Shown here: one piece after another, positions 51,717-62,734 of the stretch
Position numbering within the stretch: position 1 is the stretch's first letter
Layout: the number at the start of each line of letters is the position of its first letter
From: Shigella phage A2
DNA: 64,000 bases
Reading direction: 5' to 3' (one strand)
Sequence record: OP197928
Made by a program: the position numbers and the translations under genes
The notes under the pieces: generated by a model
Told to the model about the DNA's origin: nothing
What the model saw: the letters and a program-made list of their open reading frames with translations, nothing else
Database searches by the model: none

Positions 51717-54700
51717 ATGGCCGAGATTAAAAGAAAGTTCAGAGCAGAAGATGGTCTGGACGCAGGTGGTGATAAAATAATCAACGTAGCTTTAGCTGAT
51801 CGTGCCGTAGGAACTGACGGTGTTAACGTTGATTACTTAATTCAAGAAAACACAGTTCAACAATATGATCCAACTCGTGGATATTTAAAAGATTTTGTAA
51901 TCATTTATGATAACCGCTTTTGGGCTGCTATAAATGATATTCCAAAACCGGCAGGAGCTTTTAATAGCGGACGCTGGAGAGCATTACGTACCGATGCTAA
52001 CTGGATTACAGTCTCATCTGGTTCATATCAATTAAAATCTGGTGAAGCTATTTCGGTTAACACTGCAGCTGGTAATGATATTACATTTACTTTACCATCT
52101 ACCCCAATTGACGGTGATACTATCGTTCTCCAAGACATTGGAGGAAAACCTGGAGTTAACCAAGTTTTAATTGTAGCTCCAGTGCAAAGTATTGTAAACT
52201 TCAGAGGCGAGCAAGTACGTTCAGTACTAATGACTCATCCAAAGTCACAGTTAGTTTTAATTTTTAGTAATCGTCTGTGGCAAATGTATGTTGCCGATTA
52301 TAGTAGAGAAGCTGTCGTTGTAACACCAGCAAGTCTCTATCAGGCGCAATCTAATGATTTTATCGTACGTAGATTTACTTCTGCTGCACCAATTAATGTT
52401 AAACTTCCAAGATTTGCTAATCATGGCGATATTATTAATTTCGTTGATTTAGATAAACTGAATCCACTTTATCATACAATTGTTACTACATACGATGAAA
52501 CGACTTCAGTACAAGAAGTTGGAACTCATTCCATTGAAGGCCGTACATCAATTGACGGTTTCTTGATGTTTGATGATAATGAGAAATTGTGGAGATTGTT
52601 TGACGGGGATAGTAAAGCACGTTTACGAATTATAACGACTAATTCTAATATTCGTCCAAACGAAGAAGTCATGGTATTTGGTGCGAATAACGGAACAACT
52701 CAAACAATTGAGCTTCAGCTTCCAACTAATATTTCTGTTGGTGATACTGTTAAAATTTCCATGAATTACATGAGAAAAGGACAAACAGTTAAAATCAAAG
52801 CTGCCGGTGAAGATAAAATTGCTTCTTCAGTTCAATTGCTGCAATTCCCAAAACGTTCAGAATATCCGCCTGAAACTAAATGGGTAACTGTTCAAGAATT
52901 AGTTTTTAACGGTGAAACTAATTATGTTCCAGTTTTACAACTTGCTTATATAGAAGATTCTGATGGAAAATACTGGGTTGTACAACAAAACGTTCCAACC
53001 GTAGAAAGAGTTGATTCTTTGAATGATTCTACTAGAGCAAGATTAGGCGTAATTGCTTTAGCTACACAGGCTCAAGCTAACGTCGATTTAGAAAATTCTC
53101 CACAAAAAGAATTAGCAATTACTCCAGAAACATTAGCTAACCGTACTGCTACAGAAACTCGTAGAGGTATCGCAAGAATAGCAACTACTGCTCAAGTGAA
53201 TCAGAACACCACATTCTCTTTTGCTGATGATATTATCATCACTCCTAAAAAGCTGAATGAAAGAACTGCTACAGAAACTCGCAGAGGTGTTGCAGAAATT
53301 GCTACTCAGCAAGAAACAAACGCAGGAACAGATGATACAACCATCATTACTCCTAAAAAGCTTCAAGCTCGTCAAGGTTCTGAATCATTATCTGGTATTG
53401 TAACCTTTGTATCTACCGCAGGAGCTACTCCAGCTTCTAGTCGTGAATTAAATGGTACAAACGTTTATAATAAAAACACTAATAATTTAGTTGTTTCGCC
53501 TAAAGCTCTGGATCAGTATAAAGCTACTCCAACACAACAAGGTGCAGTAATTTTAGCAGTTGAAAGCGAAGTAATTGCTGGACAAAGCCAAGAAGGATGG
53601 GCAAATGCGGTTGTAACGCCAGAAACGTTACATAAAAAGACATCAACTGATGGAAGAATTGGTTTAATTGAAATTGCTACGCAAAGTGAAGTTAATACAG
53701 GAACTGATTATACTCGTGCAGTCACTCCTAAAACTTTAAATGACCGTAGAGCAACTGAAAGTTTAAGTGGTATAGCTGAAATTGCTACACAAGTTGAATT
53801 CGACGCAGGCGTCGACGATACTCGTATCTCTACACCATTAAAAATTAAAACTAGATTTAATAGTACTGATCGTACTTCTGTTGTTGCTCTATCTGGATTA
53901 GTTGAATCAGGAACTCTCTGGGACCATTATACCCTTAATATTCTTGAAGCAAATGAGACACAGCGTGGTACACTTCGTGTAGCTACACAAGTTGAAGCTG
54001 CTGCAGGAACATTAGATAATGTTTTAATAACTCCTAAAAAGCTTTTAGGTACTAAATCTACCGAATCGCAAGAAGGTGTTATTAAAGTTGCAACTCAAGC
54101 TGAAACCGTAGCTGGAACGTCAGCAAATACTGCTGTATCTCCAAAAAATTTAAAATGGATTGTGCAGAGTGAACCTACCTGGGCAGCTACTACTGCGATA
54201 AGAGGTTTTGTTAAAACTTCATCTGGTTCAATTACATTCGTTGGTAATGATACAGTCGGTTCTACCCAAGATTTAGAACTATATGAGAAAAATAGCTATG
54301 CAGTATCACCATATGAATTAAACCGTGTATTAGCAAATTATTTGCCGTTAAAAGCAAAAGCTGCTGATACAAATTTATTGGATGGTCTAGATTCATCTCA
54401 GTTCATTCGTAGGGATATTGCACAGACGGTTAATGGTTCACTAACCTTAACCCAGCAAACGAATCTGAGTGCCCCTCTTGTATCATCTAGTACTGCTACG
54501 TTTGGTGGATCAGTTTCGGCAAATAGTACATTAACTATTTCTAATACTGGAACGGCAACTCGTCTGATTTTTGAGAAAGGACCTCAAACTGGAACTAACC
54601 CAGCACAGACGATGACTATCAGAGTTTGGGGAAATCAGTTTGGCGGCGGTTCAGATACAACACGTTCTACTGTATTTGAAGTTGGTGATGAAACGTCTAA

Positions 54701-55586
54701 TCACTTTTATTCTCAACGCAATAAAGCTGGTAATATTACGTTTAGCATTAATGGTACTGTAATGCCAATAAATGTTAACGCTTCCGGTTCATTGAATGCG
54801 AATGGCGTAGCAACATTTGGTAGTTCAGTTACAGCCAATGGTGAATTCATTAGCAAGTCTGCAAATGCTTTCAGAGCAATAAATGGCGACTATGGATTCT
54901 TTATTCGCAATGATGCTGCTAACACCTATTTTATGCTTACTGCATCGGGTGATCAGACTGGCGGATTTAATGGATTACGTCCTTTAGCTATTAATAATGC
55001 ATCTGGTCAAGTAACTATTGGTGAAAGCTTAATCATTGCCAAAGGTGCTACTATAAATTCAGGTGGTTTAACTGTTAACTCGAGAATTCGTTCTCAAGGT
55101 TCTAAAACTGCTGATTTATATACTCGTGCTCCTACCGCTGATACAGTCGGATTCTGGTCAATTGACATTGATGATTCAGCTACATATAACCAATTCCCTG
55201 GTTATTTTAAAATGGTTGAAAAAACTAATGAAGTGACTGGGCTTCCATACTTAGAACGTGGTGAAGAAGTTAAATCTCCTGGTACACTGACACAGTTTGG
55301 TAACACACTTGATTCGCTTTACCAAGATTGGATTACTTATCCAACGACACCAGAAGCGCGTACCACTCGCTGGACACGTACATGGCAGAAAACCAAAAAC
55401 TCTTGGTCAAGTTTTGTTCAGGTATTTGACGGAGGTAACCCTCCACAACCGTCTGATATCGGTGCTTTACCATCTGATAATGCTACAATGGGGAATCTTA
55501 CTATTCGTGATTTCTTACGAATTGGTAATGTTCGCATTATTCCTGACCCAGTGAATAAAACGGTTAAATTTGAATGGGTTGAATAA
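51717..55586 (+). CDS. 34: Long tail fibre proximal subunit gp34
   Basis: 1289 aa, T4 gp34 size; repeated ATE(T/S)RRG(I/V)A..AT motifs. Confidence 0.97.
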   Translation: MAEIKRKFRAEDGLDAGGDKIINVALADRAVGTDGVNVDYLIQENTVQQYDPTRGYLKDFVIIYDNRFWAAINDIPKPAGAFNSGRWRALRTDANWITVSSGSYQLKSGEAISVNTAAGNDITFTLPSTPIDGDTIVLQDIGGKPGVNQVLIVAPVQSIVNFRGEQVRSVLMTHPKSQLVLIFSNRLWQMYVADYSREAVVVTPASLYQAQSNDFIVRRFTSAAPINVKLPRFANHGDIINFVDLDKLNPLYHTIVTTYDETTSVQEVGTHSIEGRTSIDGFLMFDDNEKLWRLFDGDSKARLRIITTNSNIRPNEEVMVFGANNGTTQTIELQLPTNISVGDTVKISMNYMRKGQTVKIKAAGEDKIASSVQLLQFPKRSEYPPETKWVTVQELVFNGETNYVPVLQLAYIEDSDGKYWVVQQNVPTVERVDSLNDSTRARLGVIALATQAQANVDLENSPQKELAITPETLANRTATETRRGIARIATTAQVNQNTTFSFADDIIITPKKLNERTATETRRGVAEIATQQETNAGTDDTTIITPKKLQARQGSESLSGIVTFVSTAGATPASSRELNGTNVYNKNTNNLVVSPKALDQYKATPTQQGAVILAVESEVIAGQSQEGWANAVVTPETLHKKTSTDGRIGLIEIATQSEVNTGTDYTRAVTPKTLNDRRATESLSGIAEIATQVEFDAGVDDTRISTPLKIKTRFNSTDRTSVVALSGLVESGTLWDHYTLNILEANETQRGTLRVATQVEAAAGTLDNVLITPKKLLGTKSTESQEGVIKVATQAETVAGTSANTAVSPKNLKWIVQSEPTWAATTAIRGFVKTSSGSITFVGNDTVGSTQDLELYEKNSYAVSPYELNRVLANYLPLKAKAADTNLLDGLDSSQFIRRDIAQTVNGSLTLTQQTNLSAPLVSSSTATFGGSVSANSTLTISNTGTATRLIFEKGPQTGTNPAQTMTIRVWGNQFGGGSDTTRSTVFEVGDETSNHFYSQRNKAGNITFSINGTVMPINVNASGSLNANGVATFGSSVTANGEFISKSANAFRAINGDYGFFIRNDAANTYFMLTASGDQTGGFNGLRPLAINNASGQVTIGESLIIAKGATINSGGLTVNSRIRSQGSKTADLYTRAPTADTVGFWSIDIDDSATYNQFPGYFKMVEKTNEVTGLPYLERGEEVKSPGTLTQFGNTLDSLYQDWITYPTTPEARTTRWTRTWQKTKNSWSSFVQVFDGGNPPQPSDIGALPSDNATMGNLTIRDFLRIGNVRIIPDPVNKTVKFEWVE

Positions 55587-55594
55587 GAGGTATT

Positions 55595-56710
55595 ATGGAA
55601 AAATTTATGGCAGAGTTTGGACAAGGATATGTCCAAACGCCATTTTTATCGGAAAGTAATTCAGTAAGATATAAAATAAGTATAGCGGGTTCTTGCCCGC
55701 TTTCTACGGCAGGACCATACGTTAAATTTCAGGATAATCCTGTTGGAAGTCAAACATTTAGCGCAGGACTTCATTTAAGAGTTTTTGATCCTTCCACCGG
55801 AGCATTAGTTGATAGTAAGTCATATGCCTTTTCGACTTCAAACGATACTACATCAGCTGCTTTTGTTAGTTTCATGAATTCTTTGGCGAATAACAGACTT
55901 GTTGCTATATTAACTAACGGAAAGGTTAATTTTCCTCCTGAAGTAGTATCTTGGTTAAGAACAGCAGGAACGTCTGCTTTTCCATCTGACTCTGTATTGT
56001 CAAGATTCGACGTATCATATGCTGCTTTTTATACTTCTTCTAAAAGAGCTATTGCATTAGAGCATGTTAAACTGAGTAATAGAAAAAGCACAGATGATTA
56101 TCAAACTATTTTAGATGTTGTATTTGACAGTTTAGAAGACGTCGGAGCTACCGGGTTTCCAAGAAGAACGTATGAAAGCGTTGAGCAATTTATGTCAGCG
56201 GTTGGTGGAACTAATAACGAAATTGCAAGATTACCAACTTCAGCTGCTATAAGTAAACTATCTGACTACAATTTAATTCCTGGCGATGTTCTTTATCTTA
56301 AAGCACAGTTATATGCTGATGCCGATTTACTTGCGCTTGGAACAACAAATATATCTATCCGTTTTTATAACGCATCTAATGGATATATTTCCTCGACACA
56401 AGCTGAGTTTACTGGACAAGCTGGATCTTGGGAATTAAAAGAAGATTATGTGGTTGTTCCAGAAAACGCTGTCGGATTTACGATATATGCACAGAGAACT
56501 GCGCAAGCTGGTCAAGGTGGCATGAGAAATTTAAGCTTTTCTGAAGTGTCAAGAAATGGAGGTATTTCGAAACCTGCTGAATTTGGCGTCAATGGCATTC
56601 GTGTTAATTATATCTGTGAATCTGCTTCACCTCCGGATATAATGGTACTTCCTACGCAAGCATCGTCTAAAACTGGTAAAGTGTTTGGGCAAGAATTTAG
56701 AGAAGTTTAA
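55595..56710 (+). CDS. 35: Long tail fibre hinge connector gp35
   Basis: 371 aa, T4 gp35 size and position. Confidence 0.9.
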   Translation: MEKFMAEFGQGYVQTPFLSESNSVRYKISIAGSCPLSTAGPYVKFQDNPVGSQTFSAGLHLRVFDPSTGALVDSKSYAFSTSNDTTSAAFVSFMNSLANNRLVAILTNGKVNFPPEVVSWLRTAGTSAFPSDSVLSRFDVSYAAFYTSSKRAIALEHVKLSNRKSTDDYQTILDVVFDSLEDVGATGFPRRTYESVEQFMSAVGGTNNEIARLPTSAAISKLSDYNLIPGDVLYLKAQLYADADLLALGTTNISIRFYNASNGYISSTQAEFTGQAGSWELKEDYVVVPENAVGFTIYAQRTAQAGQGGMRNLSFSEVSRNGGISKPAEFGVNGIRVNYICESASPPDIMVLPTQASSKTGKVFGQEFREV

Positions 56711-56772: not shown

Positions 56773-57438
56773 ATGGCTGATTTAAAAGTAGGTTCAACAA
56801 CTGGAGGCTCTGTCATTTGGCATCAAGGAAATTTTCCATTGAATCCAGCCGGTGACGATGTACTCTATAAATCATTTAAAATATATTCAGAATACAATAA
56901 ACCACAAGCTGTTGATAACGATTTCGTTTCTAAAGCTAATGGTGGTACTTATGCATCAAAGGTAACATTTAATGCTGGTGTTCAAGTACCATATGCTGTA
57001 AACAATACAAACCCGTGCGGTATTTATCCAGGTAACGGTGATAATGCTACTTTTGCTGTAGCAAATATCGATATTGTTTCGTGGAATGGTATTGGTTTTA
57101 AATCATCACAGGGTTCAGCAGCCCGAACTGTTGTAATTAATGCACGTAATGGTGATATTAGTACAAAAGGCGTTGTGTCGGCAGCAGGTCAAGTAAGAAG
57201 TGATGCGGCTGCTCCTATAGCAGCGAATGACCTTACTAGAAAGGACTATGTTGATGGAGCAATAAATACTGTTACAGCAAATGCGAACTCTAGAGTGTTA
57301 CGATCTGGTGATACTATGACTGGAAACTTAACCGCACCAAACTTTTTCTCACAGAATCCTGCATCTCAACCTTCACATGTTCCACGATTTGACCAAATCG
57401 TAATTAAGGATTCTGTTCAAGATTTCGGCTATTATTAA
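56773..57438 (+). CDS. 36: Long tail fibre distal connector gp36
   Basis: 221 aa, T4 gp36 size. Confidence 0.9.
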   Translation: MADLKVGSTTGGSVIWHQGNFPLNPAGDDVLYKSFKIYSEYNKPQAVDNDFVSKANGGTYASKVTFNAGVQVPYAVNNTNPCGIYPGNGDNATFAVANIDIVSWNGIGFKSSQGSAARTVVINARNGDISTKGVVSAAGQVRSDAAAPIAANDLTRKDYVDGAINTVTANANSRVLRSGDTMTGNLTAPNFFSQNPASQPSHVPRFDQIVIKDSVQDFGYY

Positions 57439-57446
57439 GAGGACTT

Positions 57447-60400
57447 ATGGCTACTTTAAAACAAATACAATTTAAAAGAAGCAAAACTGCAGGTCAACGT
57501 CCTGCTGCTTCAGTATTAGCCGAAGGTGAATTGGCTATAAACTTAAAAGACCGTACTCTTTTTACTAAAGATGACTCGGGAAATATTATTGATTTAAGCA
57601 TTACCGCTGGCGGTAATATTAGTGGAAATATCACTCAAACTGGCGATTATACACAGACTGGAAAATTTAATTTAATTGGTCCGCAAATTGTAGCAAGCGG
57701 TGGATATATTGAGTTTAATTATCGTACTACTGGAAGTGGGGCTTGGTCCGGTCAACACACTGCAAAAGCTCCAATTTTTGTAGATTTAAGCTCAGCTACT
57801 TCCACATCTGAATATAATCCTATAATTAAACAGCGCTTTAAAGATGGAACTTTTTCATTAGGTACTTTAGTTTCTGAAGGTTCGTTGAAGATTCATTATA
57901 TTGATGAAACTGGTCAATCTAAATATTGGACATTTGCGCGCTCAGGTAATTTTCAAGTTGATTCTGGTAATTTATTAGTATCTGGTGGGTATTTAGTCGC
58001 TCAGAGTAATATTGAAACAAGAACAGGTTCTTTGATTGGTCCATCTGTTGTAACTAAAAATATTTCATTTGATACGAAAGCGTTTGGACAATACGATTCG
58101 CAGTCATTAGTTCAATATGTTTATCCTGGAACTGGTGAAACAAACGGAATTAATTACCTTCGTAAATTCCGTGCAAAATCTGGTGGTACGATTTATCATG
58201 AATTAGCTTCTGCACAAACCGGAAAAAGTGATGAACTGTCTTGGTGGACCGGTAATACAGCCGTTAATAAACAAATGGGCCTTCGCAATGATGGGTCTTT
58301 AGTGTTGCGACGCTCACTCGCAATTGGTACAATTACAACAGATGAAAACATTAATAATTACGGCTCCACTGGAGCAATGGGTGAATGCTATATAGTCATT
58401 GGAGATGCCGCAACTGGTGTATCATATAAAAGATCTGGTGTATATGATTTAGTTGCTAATGGTCTTTCTATCGCGTCTATTACTCCTGATAGTTTCCGTA
58501 GTACTCGTAAAGCGTTATTTGGACGTTCAGAAGACCAAGGCGGAACCTGGACAATGCCTGGAACGAATGCTGCATTTTTATCAGTTCAAACACAGGCTGA
58601 TGAAAACAGTGCTGGAGACGGTCAGACACATATTGGCTATAATTCAGGCGGAAAAATGAACCACTATTTCCGCGGCAAAGGCAAAACTAATATTAATACT
58701 CAAGAAGGCATGGAAGTTAACCCGGGTATTCTTAAAATAGTAACCGGTGCAAATAATGTAATGTTTTATGCTGATGGCGGTATTACATCCACTAAGCAGC
58801 TTTCAATATATAATGGTGTATATTTAGCAGCTAATAATTCTACTGCTGGGCTAACATTCGCTCCAACTACTACAATTGATGGCACTAAGCAAATTTTGTG
58901 GGAAGGTGGTAAGCGCGCTGGACAGAATAAAAGCTATGTAACTGTTAAAGCGTGGGGTAATTCATTTAACGCATCTGGCGATCGTAATCGTGAAACAGTT
59001 TTTGAAGTAGCTGACGGACAAGGTTATTATTTTTATTCCCAGCGTGTAGCCCCAAGCGGCTCAGAAACTACTGGTCCTGTTGTAACTCAGTTTGCTGGAG
59101 CTGTTAATGCTAGAGGAAGTATTATTACTGACGGAAGTTTTAAAGTTAATGGATTGAGCACTTTAGTCGGTAATGTTACCATGTCTAATGGTTTGTTTGT
59201 CCAAGGTGGTTCTTCTGTTACTGGACAAGTTAAAATCGGCGGAACTGCTGATGCATTAAGAATTTGGAATGCCGAATATGGTGCTATTTTCCGTCGCTCA
59301 GAAAGTAATCTTTATATTATCCCGACTCCTAAAGATGCTGGAGAATCTGGTGGTATAAGTAATCTTAGACCATTGATAATAGAACTGAACACTGGCACAG
59401 TTAAAATGTCGCATGATGTTCATTTAGGAGATTCTGGATCTGGTACAGGATTATTACAAGTAAGTAATAGTCTTAAAACTATTAAAATGATATGTCCAGT
59501 AACTATTAATGAACGCAATGCAGCGCTTACTCTAGATTCTCCTTCATCTTCTTCTGCTAATTATTTGCAGGGTTCTAAAGCTGGAACTAGATCGTGGTAT
59601 GTTGGTCTTGGTGGTGCTGGAAATGATTTATCACTTTATAGCCAATCTTATGGGCATGGTCTTGTTATAAGTGATAATTTCGTGTCAATCACTAAACCCT
59701 TTAAAGTCGGAAATGCCCAACTAGGAACTGACGGTAATATTACCAACGGTTCAGGAAACTTTGCTAACTTAAATACCACGTTAAATCGTAAAGTTAATTC
59801 TGGATTTATTACTTATGGAGCAACTGCTGGATGGTATAAGTTTGCAACAGTAACAATGCCACAATCCACTTCGACAGTCTTCTTTAAAATAGCCGGTGGT
59901 TCTGGATTTAATAGCGGATTATTCACACAATGTAATATTGCTGAAATTGTTTTACGTACTAGCAATGAAAGACCTGCTGACTTAAATGCTGTATTATACA
60001 CAAGAACAATTGGATCTGCATTTAAAGATATTGCAGTTAATAACGTCTCTGGAGATACATATGACATTTATGTTTCTGCCGGAACATATTGCAATCAATT
60101 AACTTGTGAATGGACATGTACTGAAAACGCTACGGTTAGTGTTATTGGTATTAACTCATCTACACAATCGCCTGTAGATGCTCTTCCAGACACAGCAGTT
60201 AACGGTCAAGTTGCTAATGTTCTTAATAACTTGGTTGATCGCGGTAAAGTTAAACGTTACGAAGCTGATTCTGAAATAGCTATTAATAACCAAACCGGCA
60301 TTCGTATTAGAAGCAACGGCGATAAAACTGGTTCTATTGCTACAATGCTACGAAATGATGGCGGTAGTTTTTATATTCTGTTTACAGATAAAAATGCCAC

Positions 60401-61229
60401 CGATGGCGCAGCAACTGTTAACGGCGATTGGAATAGTAAGCGTCCTTTCGCAATTAACTTAACAACCGGTGAAGTGCTAATGAATAACGGTATAGCTGTT
60501 CGCAGCGCTGCTTTATTCTATAATAGCATAAACGTCAAAGATAATGGTTCTATTAACTTTGATAAATCAGGCGCTAACCCTAGAAATATGAGAATATTTC
60601 ATGCTGGCGATGCTTCTCGCGGTAACCGTATTGAAATTGCCGATGAAACTAACTATATTGCTTACTTTGAAAAAGCTCCAGGTGGAGCTAACCGCTTTGT
60701 AGTAAATAATGCTACTGTGGCTGGTGTTAATCAAATGAATTCATTTGGTATTAACATCAATAACGCACTTGGTGGAAACAGTATAGCATTTGGTGATAAT
60801 GACACGGGTATTAAGCAAAACGGCGATGGATTATTAGACATTTATGCGAATGGTGTGCAAACGTTCCGTTTCCAAAACGGTGATTTGTACTCATATAAAA
60901 ATATAAATGCCCCAAACGTTTATATTCGTTCTGATATTCGCTTAAAATCTAATTTCAAACCTATCGAAAATGCACTTGATAAAGTTGAAAAACTCAATGG
61001 TGTCATTTATGATAAAGCTGAATACATCGGTGGAGAGGCAATTGAAACTGAAGCGGGTATTGTGGCTCAAACGTTACAAGACGTTTTACCAGAAGCTGTC
61101 CGTGAAACAGAAGACAGCAAGGGTAATAAAATACTCACTGTTTCTTCTCAAGCCCAGATTGCTCTTCTGGTTGAAGCTGTGAAAACACTTTCTTCTCGTG
61201 TAAAAGAACTTGAATCTAAACTTATGTAA
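57447..61229 (+). CDS. 37: Long tail fibre distal subunit gp37 (T2-type, with C-terminal intramolecular chaperone domain)
   Basis: 1260 aa (T4 gp37 is about 1026); N-terminal part T4-like; C-terminus carries SDIRLK autoproteolysis motif and coiled-coil tail. Confidence 0.93.
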   Translation: MATLKQIQFKRSKTAGQRPAASVLAEGELAINLKDRTLFTKDDSGNIIDLSITAGGNISGNITQTGDYTQTGKFNLIGPQIVASGGYIEFNYRTTGSGAWSGQHTAKAPIFVDLSSATSTSEYNPIIKQRFKDGTFSLGTLVSEGSLKIHYIDETGQSKYWTFARSGNFQVDSGNLLVSGGYLVAQSNIETRTGSLIGPSVVTKNISFDTKAFGQYDSQSLVQYVYPGTGETNGINYLRKFRAKSGGTIYHELASAQTGKSDELSWWTGNTAVNKQMGLRNDGSLVLRRSLAIGTITTDENINNYGSTGAMGECYIVIGDAATGVSYKRSGVYDLVANGLSIASITPDSFRSTRKALFGRSEDQGGTWTMPGTNAAFLSVQTQADENSAGDGQTHIGYNSGGKMNHYFRGKGKTNINTQEGMEVNPGILKIVTGANNVMFYADGGITSTKQLSIYNGVYLAANNSTAGLTFAPTTTIDGTKQILWEGGKRAGQNKSYVTVKAWGNSFNASGDRNRETVFEVADGQGYYFYSQRVAPSGSETTGPVVTQFAGAVNARGSIITDGSFKVNGLSTLVGNVTMSNGLFVQGGSSVTGQVKIGGTADALRIWNAEYGAIFRRSESNLYIIPTPKDAGESGGISNLRPLIIELNTGTVKMSHDVHLGDSGSGTGLLQVSNSLKTIKMICPVTINERNAALTLDSPSSSSANYLQGSKAGTRSWYVGLGGAGNDLSLYSQSYGHGLVISDNFVSITKPFKVGNAQLGTDGNITNGSGNFANLNTTLNRKVNSGFITYGATAGWYKFATVTMPQSTSTVFFKIAGGSGFNSGLFTQCNIAEIVLRTSNERPADLNAVLYTRTIGSAFKDIAVNNVSGDTYDIYVSAGTYCNQLTCEWTCTENATVSVIGINSSTQSPVDALPDTAVNGQVANVLNNLVDRGKVKRYEADSEIAINNQTGIRIRSNGDKTGSIATMLRNDGGSFYILFTDKNATDGAATVNGDWNSKRPFAINLTTGEVLMNNGIAVRSAALFYNSINVKDNGSINFDKSGANPRNMRIFHAGDASRGNRIEIADETNYIAYFEKAPGGANRFVVNNATVAGVNQMNSFGININNALGGNSIAFGDNDTGIKQNGDGLLDIYANGVQTFRFQNGDLYSYKNINAPNVYIRSDIRLKSNFKPIENALDKVEKLNGVIYDKAEYIGGEAIETEAGIVAQTLQDVLPEAVRETEDSKGNKILTVSSQAQIALLVEAVKTLSSRVKELESKLM

Positions 61230-61230
61230 A

Positions 61231-61256
61231 AGAGGGCTTCGGCCCTCTAAGGATTT
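61231..61256 (+). terminator. Hairpin after gene 37 (AGAGGGC-UUCG-GCCCUCU) with downstream U-run
   Basis: 7-bp stem, UUCG tetraloop, then AAGGATTTTTA containing the gene 38 SD; probably attenuating. Confidence 0.5.
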
Positions 61257-61259
61257 TTA

Positions 61260-62045
61260 ATGGCAATTGTAGGTGTTCCTGGCTGGATTGGTGAATCTGC
61301 CGTGAATGAAACTGGACAACGTTGGATGGATGCTGCAATGAGAGCAGTCCGTGTTTCAGTTCCCGGTTGGATGAGCTCAATGGCCGGACAATCTAAAGAA
61401 GTATATTATAGCATTGGTGCTAGTAATTCTTATAATAAAGATACATTAATAAACTGGATAAAAGCACAAGGGTCCACGCCTGTTGTTATTACTATTACAG
61501 GAAATATTGTTTCTCAATCTACTGGTGTTCCATGCTTAGATTTTCCTAGCTCATTAACTAATGCATACGTGACACTTAATATCAATTCAGGCGTGCATGT
61601 TTGGGGCCGTGGTGGGAATGGCGGAAATAACTCTGCCGGTAGAGCAGGAGGAACTGCAATAAATAATGGAATTGGAACTAGATTGCGTATTAACAACAAT
61701 GGTGTTATCGCAGGAGGCGGTGGCGGCGGTGGAGGCGGATATTATTCTCCTTTTTCACAAATGAAATTGACTTTTGGCGGTGGCGGCGGTCGTCCATTTG
61801 GTGCTGCTGGCGGGTCTGCTAATATGGAACAGGGCGCTACTGCTGGTACTATTTCTGCACCTGGTAAAGGGTCTGTCAATGGTATCTATAATGGCGGGAA
61901 TGGCGGTGATGCTGGTGCCGCAGGTGGTAAATGTAATATTCGTGGGCAAGGATCAGAATATAACGGCGGCGCGGCTGGTAAAGCTGTTACTGGTAATGCT
62001 CCAACTTGGACTAAGGTTGGTACAATATATGGTTCAAGAGTATAA
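61260..62045 (+). CDS. 38: Receptor-recognising adhesin gp38 (T2-type, glycine-rich motifs)
   Basis: 261 aa; conserved N-terminal gp37-attachment region followed by several Gly-rich motifs separated by variable segments. Confidence 0.85.
   Translation: MAIVGVPGWIGESAVNETGQRWMDAAMRAVRVSVPGWMSSMAGQSKEVYYSIGASNSYNKDTLINWIKAQGSTPVVITITGNIVSQSTGVPCLDFPSSLTNAYVTLNINSGVHVWGRGGNGGNNSAGRAGGTAINNGIGTRLRINNNGVIAGGGGGGGGGYYSPFSQMKLTFGGGGGRPFGAAGGSANMEQGATAGTISAPGKGSVNGIYNGGNGGDAGAAGGKCNIRGQGSEYNGGAAGKAVTGNAPTWTKVGTIYGSRV
61713..61739 (+). repeat. Nine consecutive glycine codons (GGA GGC GGT GGC GGC GGT GGA GGC GGA) inside gene 38
   Basis: Direct reading of codons in the gene 38 frame; second G5 tract at 61774..61797. 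Confidence 0.9.
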
Positions 62046-62077: not shown

Positions 62078-62734
62078 ATGGCAGCACCTAGAATATCATT
62101 TTCGCCCTCTGATATTCTATTTGGTGTTCTAGATCGCTTGTTCAAAGATAACGCTACCGGGAAAGTTCTTGCTTCCCGGGTAGCTGTCGTAATTCTTTTA
62201 TTTATGATGGCGATTGTTTGGTATAGGGGAGATAGTTTCTTTGAGTACTATAAGCAATCAAAGTATGAAACATACAGTGAAATTATTGAAAAGGAAAGAA
62301 ATGCACGCTTTGAATCTGTCGCCCTGGAACAACTCCAGATAGTTCATATATCATCTGAGGCAGACTTTAGTGCGGTGTATTCTTTCCGCCCTAAAAACTT
62401 AAACTATTTTGTTGATATTATAGCATATGAAGGAAAATTACCTTCAACAATAAGTGAAAAATCACTTGGAGGATATCCTGTTGATAAAACTATGGATGAA
62501 TATGCAGTTCATTTAAATGGACGTCATTATTATTCCAACTCAAAATTTGCTTTTTTACCAACTAAAAAGCCTACTCCCGAAATAAACTACATGTACAGTT
62601 GTCCATATTTTAATTTGGATAATATCTATGCTGGAACGATAACCATGTACTGGTATAGAAATGATCATATAAGTAATGACCGCCTTGAATCAATATGTGC
62701 TCAGGCGGCCAGAATATTAGGAAGGGCTAAATAA
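62078..62734 (+). CDS. t: Holin T
   Basis: 218 aa; single N-terminal TM segment and large periplasmic domain; T4 holin size. Confidence 0.95.
   Translation: MAAPRISFSPSDILFGVLDRLFKDNATGKVLASRVAVVILLFMMAIVWYRGDSFFEYYKQSKYETYSEIIEKERNARFESVALEQLQIVHISSEADFSAVYSFRPKNLNYFVDIIAYEGKLPSTISEKSLGGYPVDKTMDEYAVHLNGRHYYSNSKFAFLPTKKPTPEINYMYSCPYFNLDNIYAGTITMYWYRNDHISNDRLESICAQAARILGRAK

Follow-up and report, generated by a model that had tools for sequence, protein, structure and literature searches.

Organization of the long tail fibre locus

The window analysed here, that is, the whole stretch of 64,000 nt from Shigella phage A2 (OP197928), corresponds to a Tequatrovirus whose nearest relatives are FriedrichMiescher, JLBYU22 and teqhal (~96% nucleotide identity), and its plus strand bears a T-even long-tail-fibre block. 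The open reading frames of this block, all in the + orientation, encode gp34 (51717-55586; 1289 aa), the hinge protein gp35 (55595-56710), gp36 (56773-57438), gp37, the precursor of the long tail fibre distal subunit (gene 37, 57447-61229; 1260 aa, 134.3 kDa), gp38, a T2-type adhesin (gene 38, 61260-62045; 261 aa), and the holin t (62078-62734). The same 34-35-36-37-38-t order is found in phage T4, whose gp37 has N-terminal and shaft domains homologous to those of A2. At the nucleotide level, gene 37 is 96.6-96.7% identical to the annotated gp37 of teqhal and FriedrichMiescher, and a Pfam search of its product recognized the gp37_trimer, Gp34_trimer and Peptidase_S74 domains.

Residues 508-645 and 694-766 of gp37 match Gp34_trimer (PF21446, two stretches) and gp37_trimer (PF20744), the Gp34_trimer module being common to the proximal and the distal half-fibres. 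As for the hinge protein gp35, its residues 58-127 match the Pfam family PF15711 (ILEI, interleukin-like EMT inducer), scoring 35 bits where the cutoff is 27 (E = 2e-8), a surprising family name for a phage fibre hinge.

The C-terminal module of gp37

Translation of positions 60930-61229 yields SDIRLKSNFKPIENALDKVEKLNGVIYDKAEYIGGEAIETEAGIVAQTLQDVLPEAVRETEDSKGNKILTVSSQAQIALLVEAVKTLSSRVKELESKLM, followed by the stop codon, which reproduces exactly the 99-aa tail, the coordinates and the sequence given in the preliminary description of this DNA. The tail corresponds to a C-terminal intramolecular chaperone module (60930-61226, + strand; residues 1162-1260, 10.83 kDa, pI 4.9) that runs to the gp37 stop codon, and its position is therefore the extreme C-terminal one. 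It opens with the motif SDIRLK (60930-60947, + strand), found once in gp37, at residue 1162, with Ser1162 encoded by the codon TCT (60930-60932) and Lys1167 at 60945-60947. Ser1162 is the predicted nucleophile, with which the released fragment would begin, and Lys1167 is the predicted general base. The predicted mature gp37 would then comprise residues 1-1161 (57447-60929, + strand) and end in NAPNVYIR; its mass of 123.5 kDa, against 134.3 kDa for the precursor, and the 10,830 Da of the tail agree with the loss of about 11 kDa that had been anticipated. In the 1986 work on T2, the part removed was reportedly estimated at about 120 residues, as compared with the 99 predicted here, a difference that weighs against the proposed cleavage.

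Within the module, a Pfam-matched Peptidase_S74 core (PF13884; 60930-61103, + strand, residues 1162-1219) is followed by a C-terminal amphipathic helix (61146-61223, + strand, residues 1234-1259; DSSP on the structural model), along which I1238, L1241, V1245, L1248, V1252, L1255 and L1259 are placed in an unbroken 3-4-3-4-3-4 hydrophobic spacing. The coiled-coil-like character formerly attributed to the tail is borne out by this repeat and by the modelling of residues 1234-1259 as a single helix. The helix is predicted to form the trimeric coiled coil of the chaperone, which would fit the chaperones of T5 and K1F, both of which have a central trimeric coiled coil (PMC4690869).

A 70-aa open reading frame in another frame (60970-61182) was dismissed, since the coding region that contains it is strongly conserved and nothing independent speaks for it.

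Domain identity, catalytic pair and predicted fold

When gp37 was compared with Pfam, PF13884 (Peptidase_S74, "Chaperone of endosialidase") matched with 56.5 bits over a cutoff of 22 (E = 3.5e-15), spanning the full length of the profile (positions 1-58 of 58) and with its first residue falling exactly on Ser1162. The preliminary description had proposed a profile search for the chaperone domain and had held that the lack of a profile match would speak against the claim; with a match of this strength, what was found is the opposite. An NCBIfam search of gp37, the module and gp38 gave no match, which is uninformative since that library has no model for them.

A homolog profile and the alignment used for modelling were built from only those 15 matches that contained the module, and for this reason the alignment is shallow; most matches of the large protein search were short fragments, and about two thirds of them covered only the ~50 residues preceding the cleavage site, with no chaperone. 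Searched against the PDB, the homolog profile recovered gp37 of phage S16 (6F45_A, E = 4e-19); 8JOV, a tail fibre (5e-12); 7DC3, the autocleavage domain of MYRF (3.5e-10); and 3GUD, the neck appendage chaperone of GA-1 (3e-6), whose crystallised chain starts at the homologous Ser (SDERHK). Although the aligned homologs are no more than 35-42% identical, none of them departs from the Ser, Asp and Lys of the motif, and the Arg is almost invariant. The motif formerly given as S-D-x-R-L-K can thus be kept in the form S-D-x-R-x-K, which is conserved, while the Leu is common and not invariant (SDRRIK in S16, SDERHK in GA-1). A catalytic Ser/Lys pair, with the two residues five positions apart, is known from the endosialidase, T5 pb1 (Ser1264/Lys1269) and MYRF (S578/K583), and in A2 a Ser at the first residue of the domain is likewise followed by a Lys five residues downstream (S1162-D-I-R-L-K1167); as aligned, Ser1162 and Lys1167 sit at the catalytic Ser/Lys positions of the family.

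The last 119 residues of gp37 were also modelled as a monomer with AlphaFold2 (mean pLDDT 78.9; 81-97 across the module). The model displays a mixed alpha/beta fold leading into a long helix at the C-terminus, a single one of 26 residues in the DSSP assignment (residues 1234-1259, model residues 93-118; pLDDT 89-97). Its only significant PDB matches were the chaperone domains 7DC3, 3GW6 and 3GUD: the best of them, 7DC3, was matched with a TM-score of 0.69-0.70 (E ~1e-6, 26-28% identity), and 3GW6, from the K1F endosialidase, superposes on the model in part only (TMq 0.53). That the model matches only solved intramolecular chaperone domains and that the Ser/Lys pair is invariant both uphold the kinship with endosialidase-type chaperones that had been put forward from the motif.

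In K1F and T5, the active site is completed by upstream residues, namely an Arg of the neighbouring chain (oxyanion hole), plus an Asp and a Thr. Upstream of the A2 site, R1141, D1146 and K1151 are present and constitute candidate folding-sensor residues; the model is a monomer and of low confidence in this region, its pLDDT staying under 50 over the 17 residues that precede the site, which likewise weighs against the mechanism proposed below.

Could SDIRLK and the helical tail be a chance resemblance, with no homologous domain behind them? The Pfam and PDB profile matches (E = 3.5e-15 and 4e-19, respectively) and the fold match refute this reading; the 1,735 phage records in which fibre genes end in the module also speak against it, and we regard it as vanishingly improbable.

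Distribution of the module among phages

These 1,735 records were retrieved by tblastn with the last 109 residues of gp37, and 67 of them match at 99% identity or more, including ime09 at 100%. The matches include gp37 of T-even phages of enterobacterial hosts, KVP40, cyanophages, T5-like L-shaped fibres and Burkholderia phages. Furthermore, a search of the PHROGs collection with the 99 aa gave matches to 32 different tail-fibre families, located at the very C-terminal end of each profile, which is the pattern that a portable C-terminal module would produce.

In two records the module lies under genes with other annotations, namely "gp36 small distal tail fiber subunit" in RB16 (HM134276.1, 169435-169755) and "baseplate wedge initiator" in cyanophage ACG-2014f (KJ019151.1, 212715-212996); either these annotations are loose, or the module has been joined to other fibre or baseplate proteins.

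A different distribution was observed for the segment that precedes the cleavage site: gp37 residues ~1112-1161 (60780-60929; AFGDNDTGIKQNGDGLLDIYANG...) match "phage tail protein" fragments from E. coli, Shigella and Salmonella with up to 92% identity. Those prophage fragments have no Peptidase_S74 domain, which suggests, from the sequences compared, that this tip segment is common to prophage fibres that fold in other ways.

Comparison with self-cleaving chaperones

Chaperone domains of this kind have been ascribed to the fibres of S16 and T5 and to the spikes of K1F and phi29 (PMC7289586). Among the structurally solved relatives, S16 gp37 shows homology to A2 gp37 both in the tip preceding the site and in the chaperone (E = 4e-19), with the autocleavage Ser aligned. 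In S16 gp37, the intramolecular chaperone comprises the last 113 residues; its self-cleavage at DLNVS^SDRRIKK exposes the docking surface for gp38, and the same cleavage has been predicted at DVYIR^SDGRLKI in the Tequatrovirus phages fPS-2, -65 and -90 (PMC7917993). The A2 sequence NVYIR^SDIRLKS presents nearly the same junction as the fPS phages. With respect to S16, the A2 module is shorter (99 aa instead of 113), its site reads R^SDIRLK instead of S^SDRRIK, and the sequence just upstream differs; the residue preceding the scissile Ser is Arg in A2, as opposed to Ser in S16 and Thr in T5, which also weighs against the proposed cleavage.

The long fibre of T5 resembles that of A2 in that pb1 carries a C-terminal chaperone with a Ser and, five residues on, a Lys; in T5 the chaperone is removed autoproteolytically by a Ser/Lys mechanism (PMC4690869), and the fibre is active only once processed. 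Unlike A2, the T5 chaperone comprises 133 aa with long beta-hairpin tentacles, and the mature tip binds the receptor by itself, with no capping adhesin. The K1F endosialidase endoNF (3GW6; PF13884, MEROPS S74) is the founding member of the family and has in common with A2 the S-D-x-R-x-K motif, the Ser/Lys mechanism and the C-terminal coiled coil; its module, however, is larger, bears extended "tentacle" hairpins and serves a tailspike enzyme. The same Ser/Lys pair is also present in the ICA domain of MYRF (7DC3), a eukaryotic membrane-bound transcription factor in which cleavage frees the N-terminal part for entry into the nucleus, and does not contribute to the maturation of a fibre.

These systems bear on the possibility that the A2 module is a genuine chaperone removed by a separate protease, of the host or the phage, and not by its own Ser/Lys pair. 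Processing was established by the work on T2, as related in PMC3157838, and the accounts consulted do not document autocatalysis for the gp37 of T2-type Tequatrovirus; in addition, for the upstream active-site residues the monomer model leaves no more than candidates. Against this, Ser and Lys are invariant at the catalytic positions of the family, the homologous modules of S16, T5 and K1F cleave themselves, a Ser-to-Ala change blocking the reaction, as in T5 (PMC7917993, PMC4690869, PMC7289586), and the released GA-1 chaperone begins at the same Ser. A separate protease thus seems very unlikely to us, and self-cleavage by the Ser/Lys pair is the reading that we retain.

T2-type and T4-type distal fibres

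The distal fibre of A2 is almost that of T2 and K3 at its end. T2 gp37 (1341 aa) matches PF13884 at residues 1243-1300 and K3 gp37 (1243 aa) at residues 1145-1202, both with the same Pfam score as A2; both finish in a 99-aa tail starting with SDIRLK, and the A2 module is identical to each of them at 98 of 99 positions, with a single Ser/Ala change. In T2 and K3, as in A2, a gp38 adhesin gene lies downstream, after a 30-nt spacer that is identical, hairpin included, to that of A2. Conversely, the gp37 shafts diverge considerably (723 identical positions in 1,272 alignment columns between A2 and T2, and 860 in 1,171 between A2 and K3), and the receptor-binding part of gp38 differs from that of T2, with 58% nucleotide identity.

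T4, in contrast, binds its receptor through the tip of gp37 and matures its fibre with chaperones that act in trans (gp38 and gp57A), its gp38 being an assembly factor. Scanning of T4 gp37 (NC_000866, 1026 aa) gave neither a PF13884 match nor an SD.R.K motif, the end of the protein being occupied by Collar and fibre-repeat domains; T4 gp38, when scanned, matched neither of the two GP38 Pfam families. A2 gp37, on its part, has no Collar or Phage_fiber match in Pfam and does not belong to the T4 type. The contrast drawn earlier between a T2-type arrangement here and that of T4 therefore holds, given the near-identical T2 and K3 tails and a T4 gp37 devoid of both domain and motif. As tblastn had returned matches in T4_ev151 and wV7, we considered whether T4 itself carries the module, and this was ruled out by the scan of NC_000866 gp37.

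The gene downstream of gene 37 encodes a glycine-rich adhesin with an N-terminal attachment domain, as is proper to a T2-type fibre. A2 gp38 matches PF05268 with 246 bits and PF21721 (Gp38_N) with 64.6 bits, and it aligns with S16 gp38 (6F45_D) at E = 4e-49. In the S16 complex (6F45; Dunne et al. 2018), the authors of the structure describe the tips of the gp38 helices as carrying three conserved tryptophans, which insert into three equivalent pockets of the gp37 base, and W9, W22 and W37 of A2 gp38 align with these docking tryptophans. The adhesin partner that had been expected for gp37 is thus present, and it is of the T2 type.

According to PMC3157838, a secondary account that cites Drexler, Riede and Henning (1986), the gp37 C-terminus of T2 and T6 undergoes proteolytic cleavage and subsequently receives gp38 as its cap. 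Near-identity to T2 and homology to S16 lead us to infer that C-terminal processing of A2 gp37 exposes the docking surface of gp38, the new C-terminus (...NVYIR) of the mature protein being the predicted docking base by analogy with these phages. In a contrasting arrangement, the module would stay on the mature fibre as a lasting trimerisation knob, with gp38 bound at some other place. This is hard to reconcile with the identity of 98 out of 99 residues to T2, where cleavage precedes capping in the account just cited, with the position of S16 gp38 on a gp37 base exposed only after removal of the chaperone (PMC7917993), and with the intact catalytic pair of A2. We hold a retained knob to be highly improbable, and removal of the module before capping by gp38 is preferred.

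Proposed maturation of the A2 distal fibre

What was computed here for A2 comprises the identity of the domain, its conserved catalytic pair, its fold and C-terminal position, the T2-type gp38 partner and the absence of the module from T4. We consider it highly probable that gp37 ends in a 99-residue chaperone of the Peptidase_S74/endosialidase family, acting through trimerisation, cleavage and capping by gp38. By homology with S16, T5, K1F and T2, cleavage would take place in A2, would be autocatalytic and would fall on the bond proposed below, with the events in the following order. The C-terminal helices would form a trimeric coiled coil, bringing three nascent gp37 chains into register; from this nucleus at its C-terminal end, the beta-structured distal fibre would fold. 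The geometry of a correctly folded trimer would place Ser1162 beside Lys1167, and the Ser1162 thus activated by Lys1167 would attack the Arg1161-Ser1162 peptide bond in each chain, after which the chaperone trimer (3 x 10.8 kDa) would dissociate. One gp38 would then cap the exposed base of the gp37 trimer, with W9, W22 and W37 of its N-terminal three-helix bundle seated in three equivalent pockets; once docked, gp38 would read the receptor.

The feature itself is already known: it is the T2-type gp37 chaperone, one residue away from that of T2, and the earlier reading of it is the textbook one for this type of fibre. The processing of T2 gp37 has been on record since 1986 and structures have explained the mechanism in S16, T5, K1F and GA-1, so that no new question is opened. 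Public records give gp37 only as "long tail fibre distal subunit", with the cleavable module unmarked, and the relevance of the assignment lies mainly in annotation and in engineering (chimeric fibres, recombinant gp37-gp38 tips and host-range swaps). Since mature gp37 is predicted to end at Arg1161, the 99-aa tail would be needed in an expression construct for folding and would be absent from the product.

Conservation and mosaic structure around the predicted cleavage site

Identity to T2 DNA amounts to 97.0% in the module, 100% in the 30-nt spacer and 93.6% in the segment encoding the N-terminus of gp38 (61260-61400), whereas mature gp37 as a whole reaches 68.8%. The 180 nt before the cleavage site, which encode the docking tip, are 84% identical to T2, below the 97% of the module. 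The nine nucleotide differences in the module result in a single amino-acid change, which points to purifying selection. The flanks are much less similar to T2, with 58% in the rest of gp38 and 52-70% in the bins of the distal shaft (60147-60746).

Gene 37 is itself mosaic in its upstream part: positions 57447-57896 are T2-like (93-99% to T2, 41-91% to K3), and positions 59397-60746 are K3-like (91-98% to K3, 48-70% to T2).

Together, the module, the hairpin of the spacer and the attachment domain of gp38 make up a single island (60897-61400), 94-100% identical to T2 DNA, between segments with only about 50-60% identity. On the basis of this conservation, the chaperone may do more than fold gp37, although we find this distinctly improbable. 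One possibility is that the island is maintained as a unit because the chaperone trimer, on leaving, passes the new tip on to gp38; another is that it provides a homology patch at which fibre shafts and adhesins recombine. Such a recombination patch is said to have been proposed already for T-even phages, by Tetart et al. in 1998, and of the two readings only the hand-over from chaperone to gp38 would be new, if true.

The spacer, which is 100% identical in K3 as well, contains a GC-rich hairpin with a UUCG loop (AGAGGGC-UUCG-GCCCUCU; 61231-61248, + strand; -13.4 kcal/mol, z = -2.0), located between the stop codon of gene 37 and the ribosome-binding site AAGGA of gene 38. The K3 record X04747 annotates the spacer hairpin as a potential terminator overlapping the ribosome-binding site of gene 38, and its candidate roles include attenuation, transcript stability and translational coupling.
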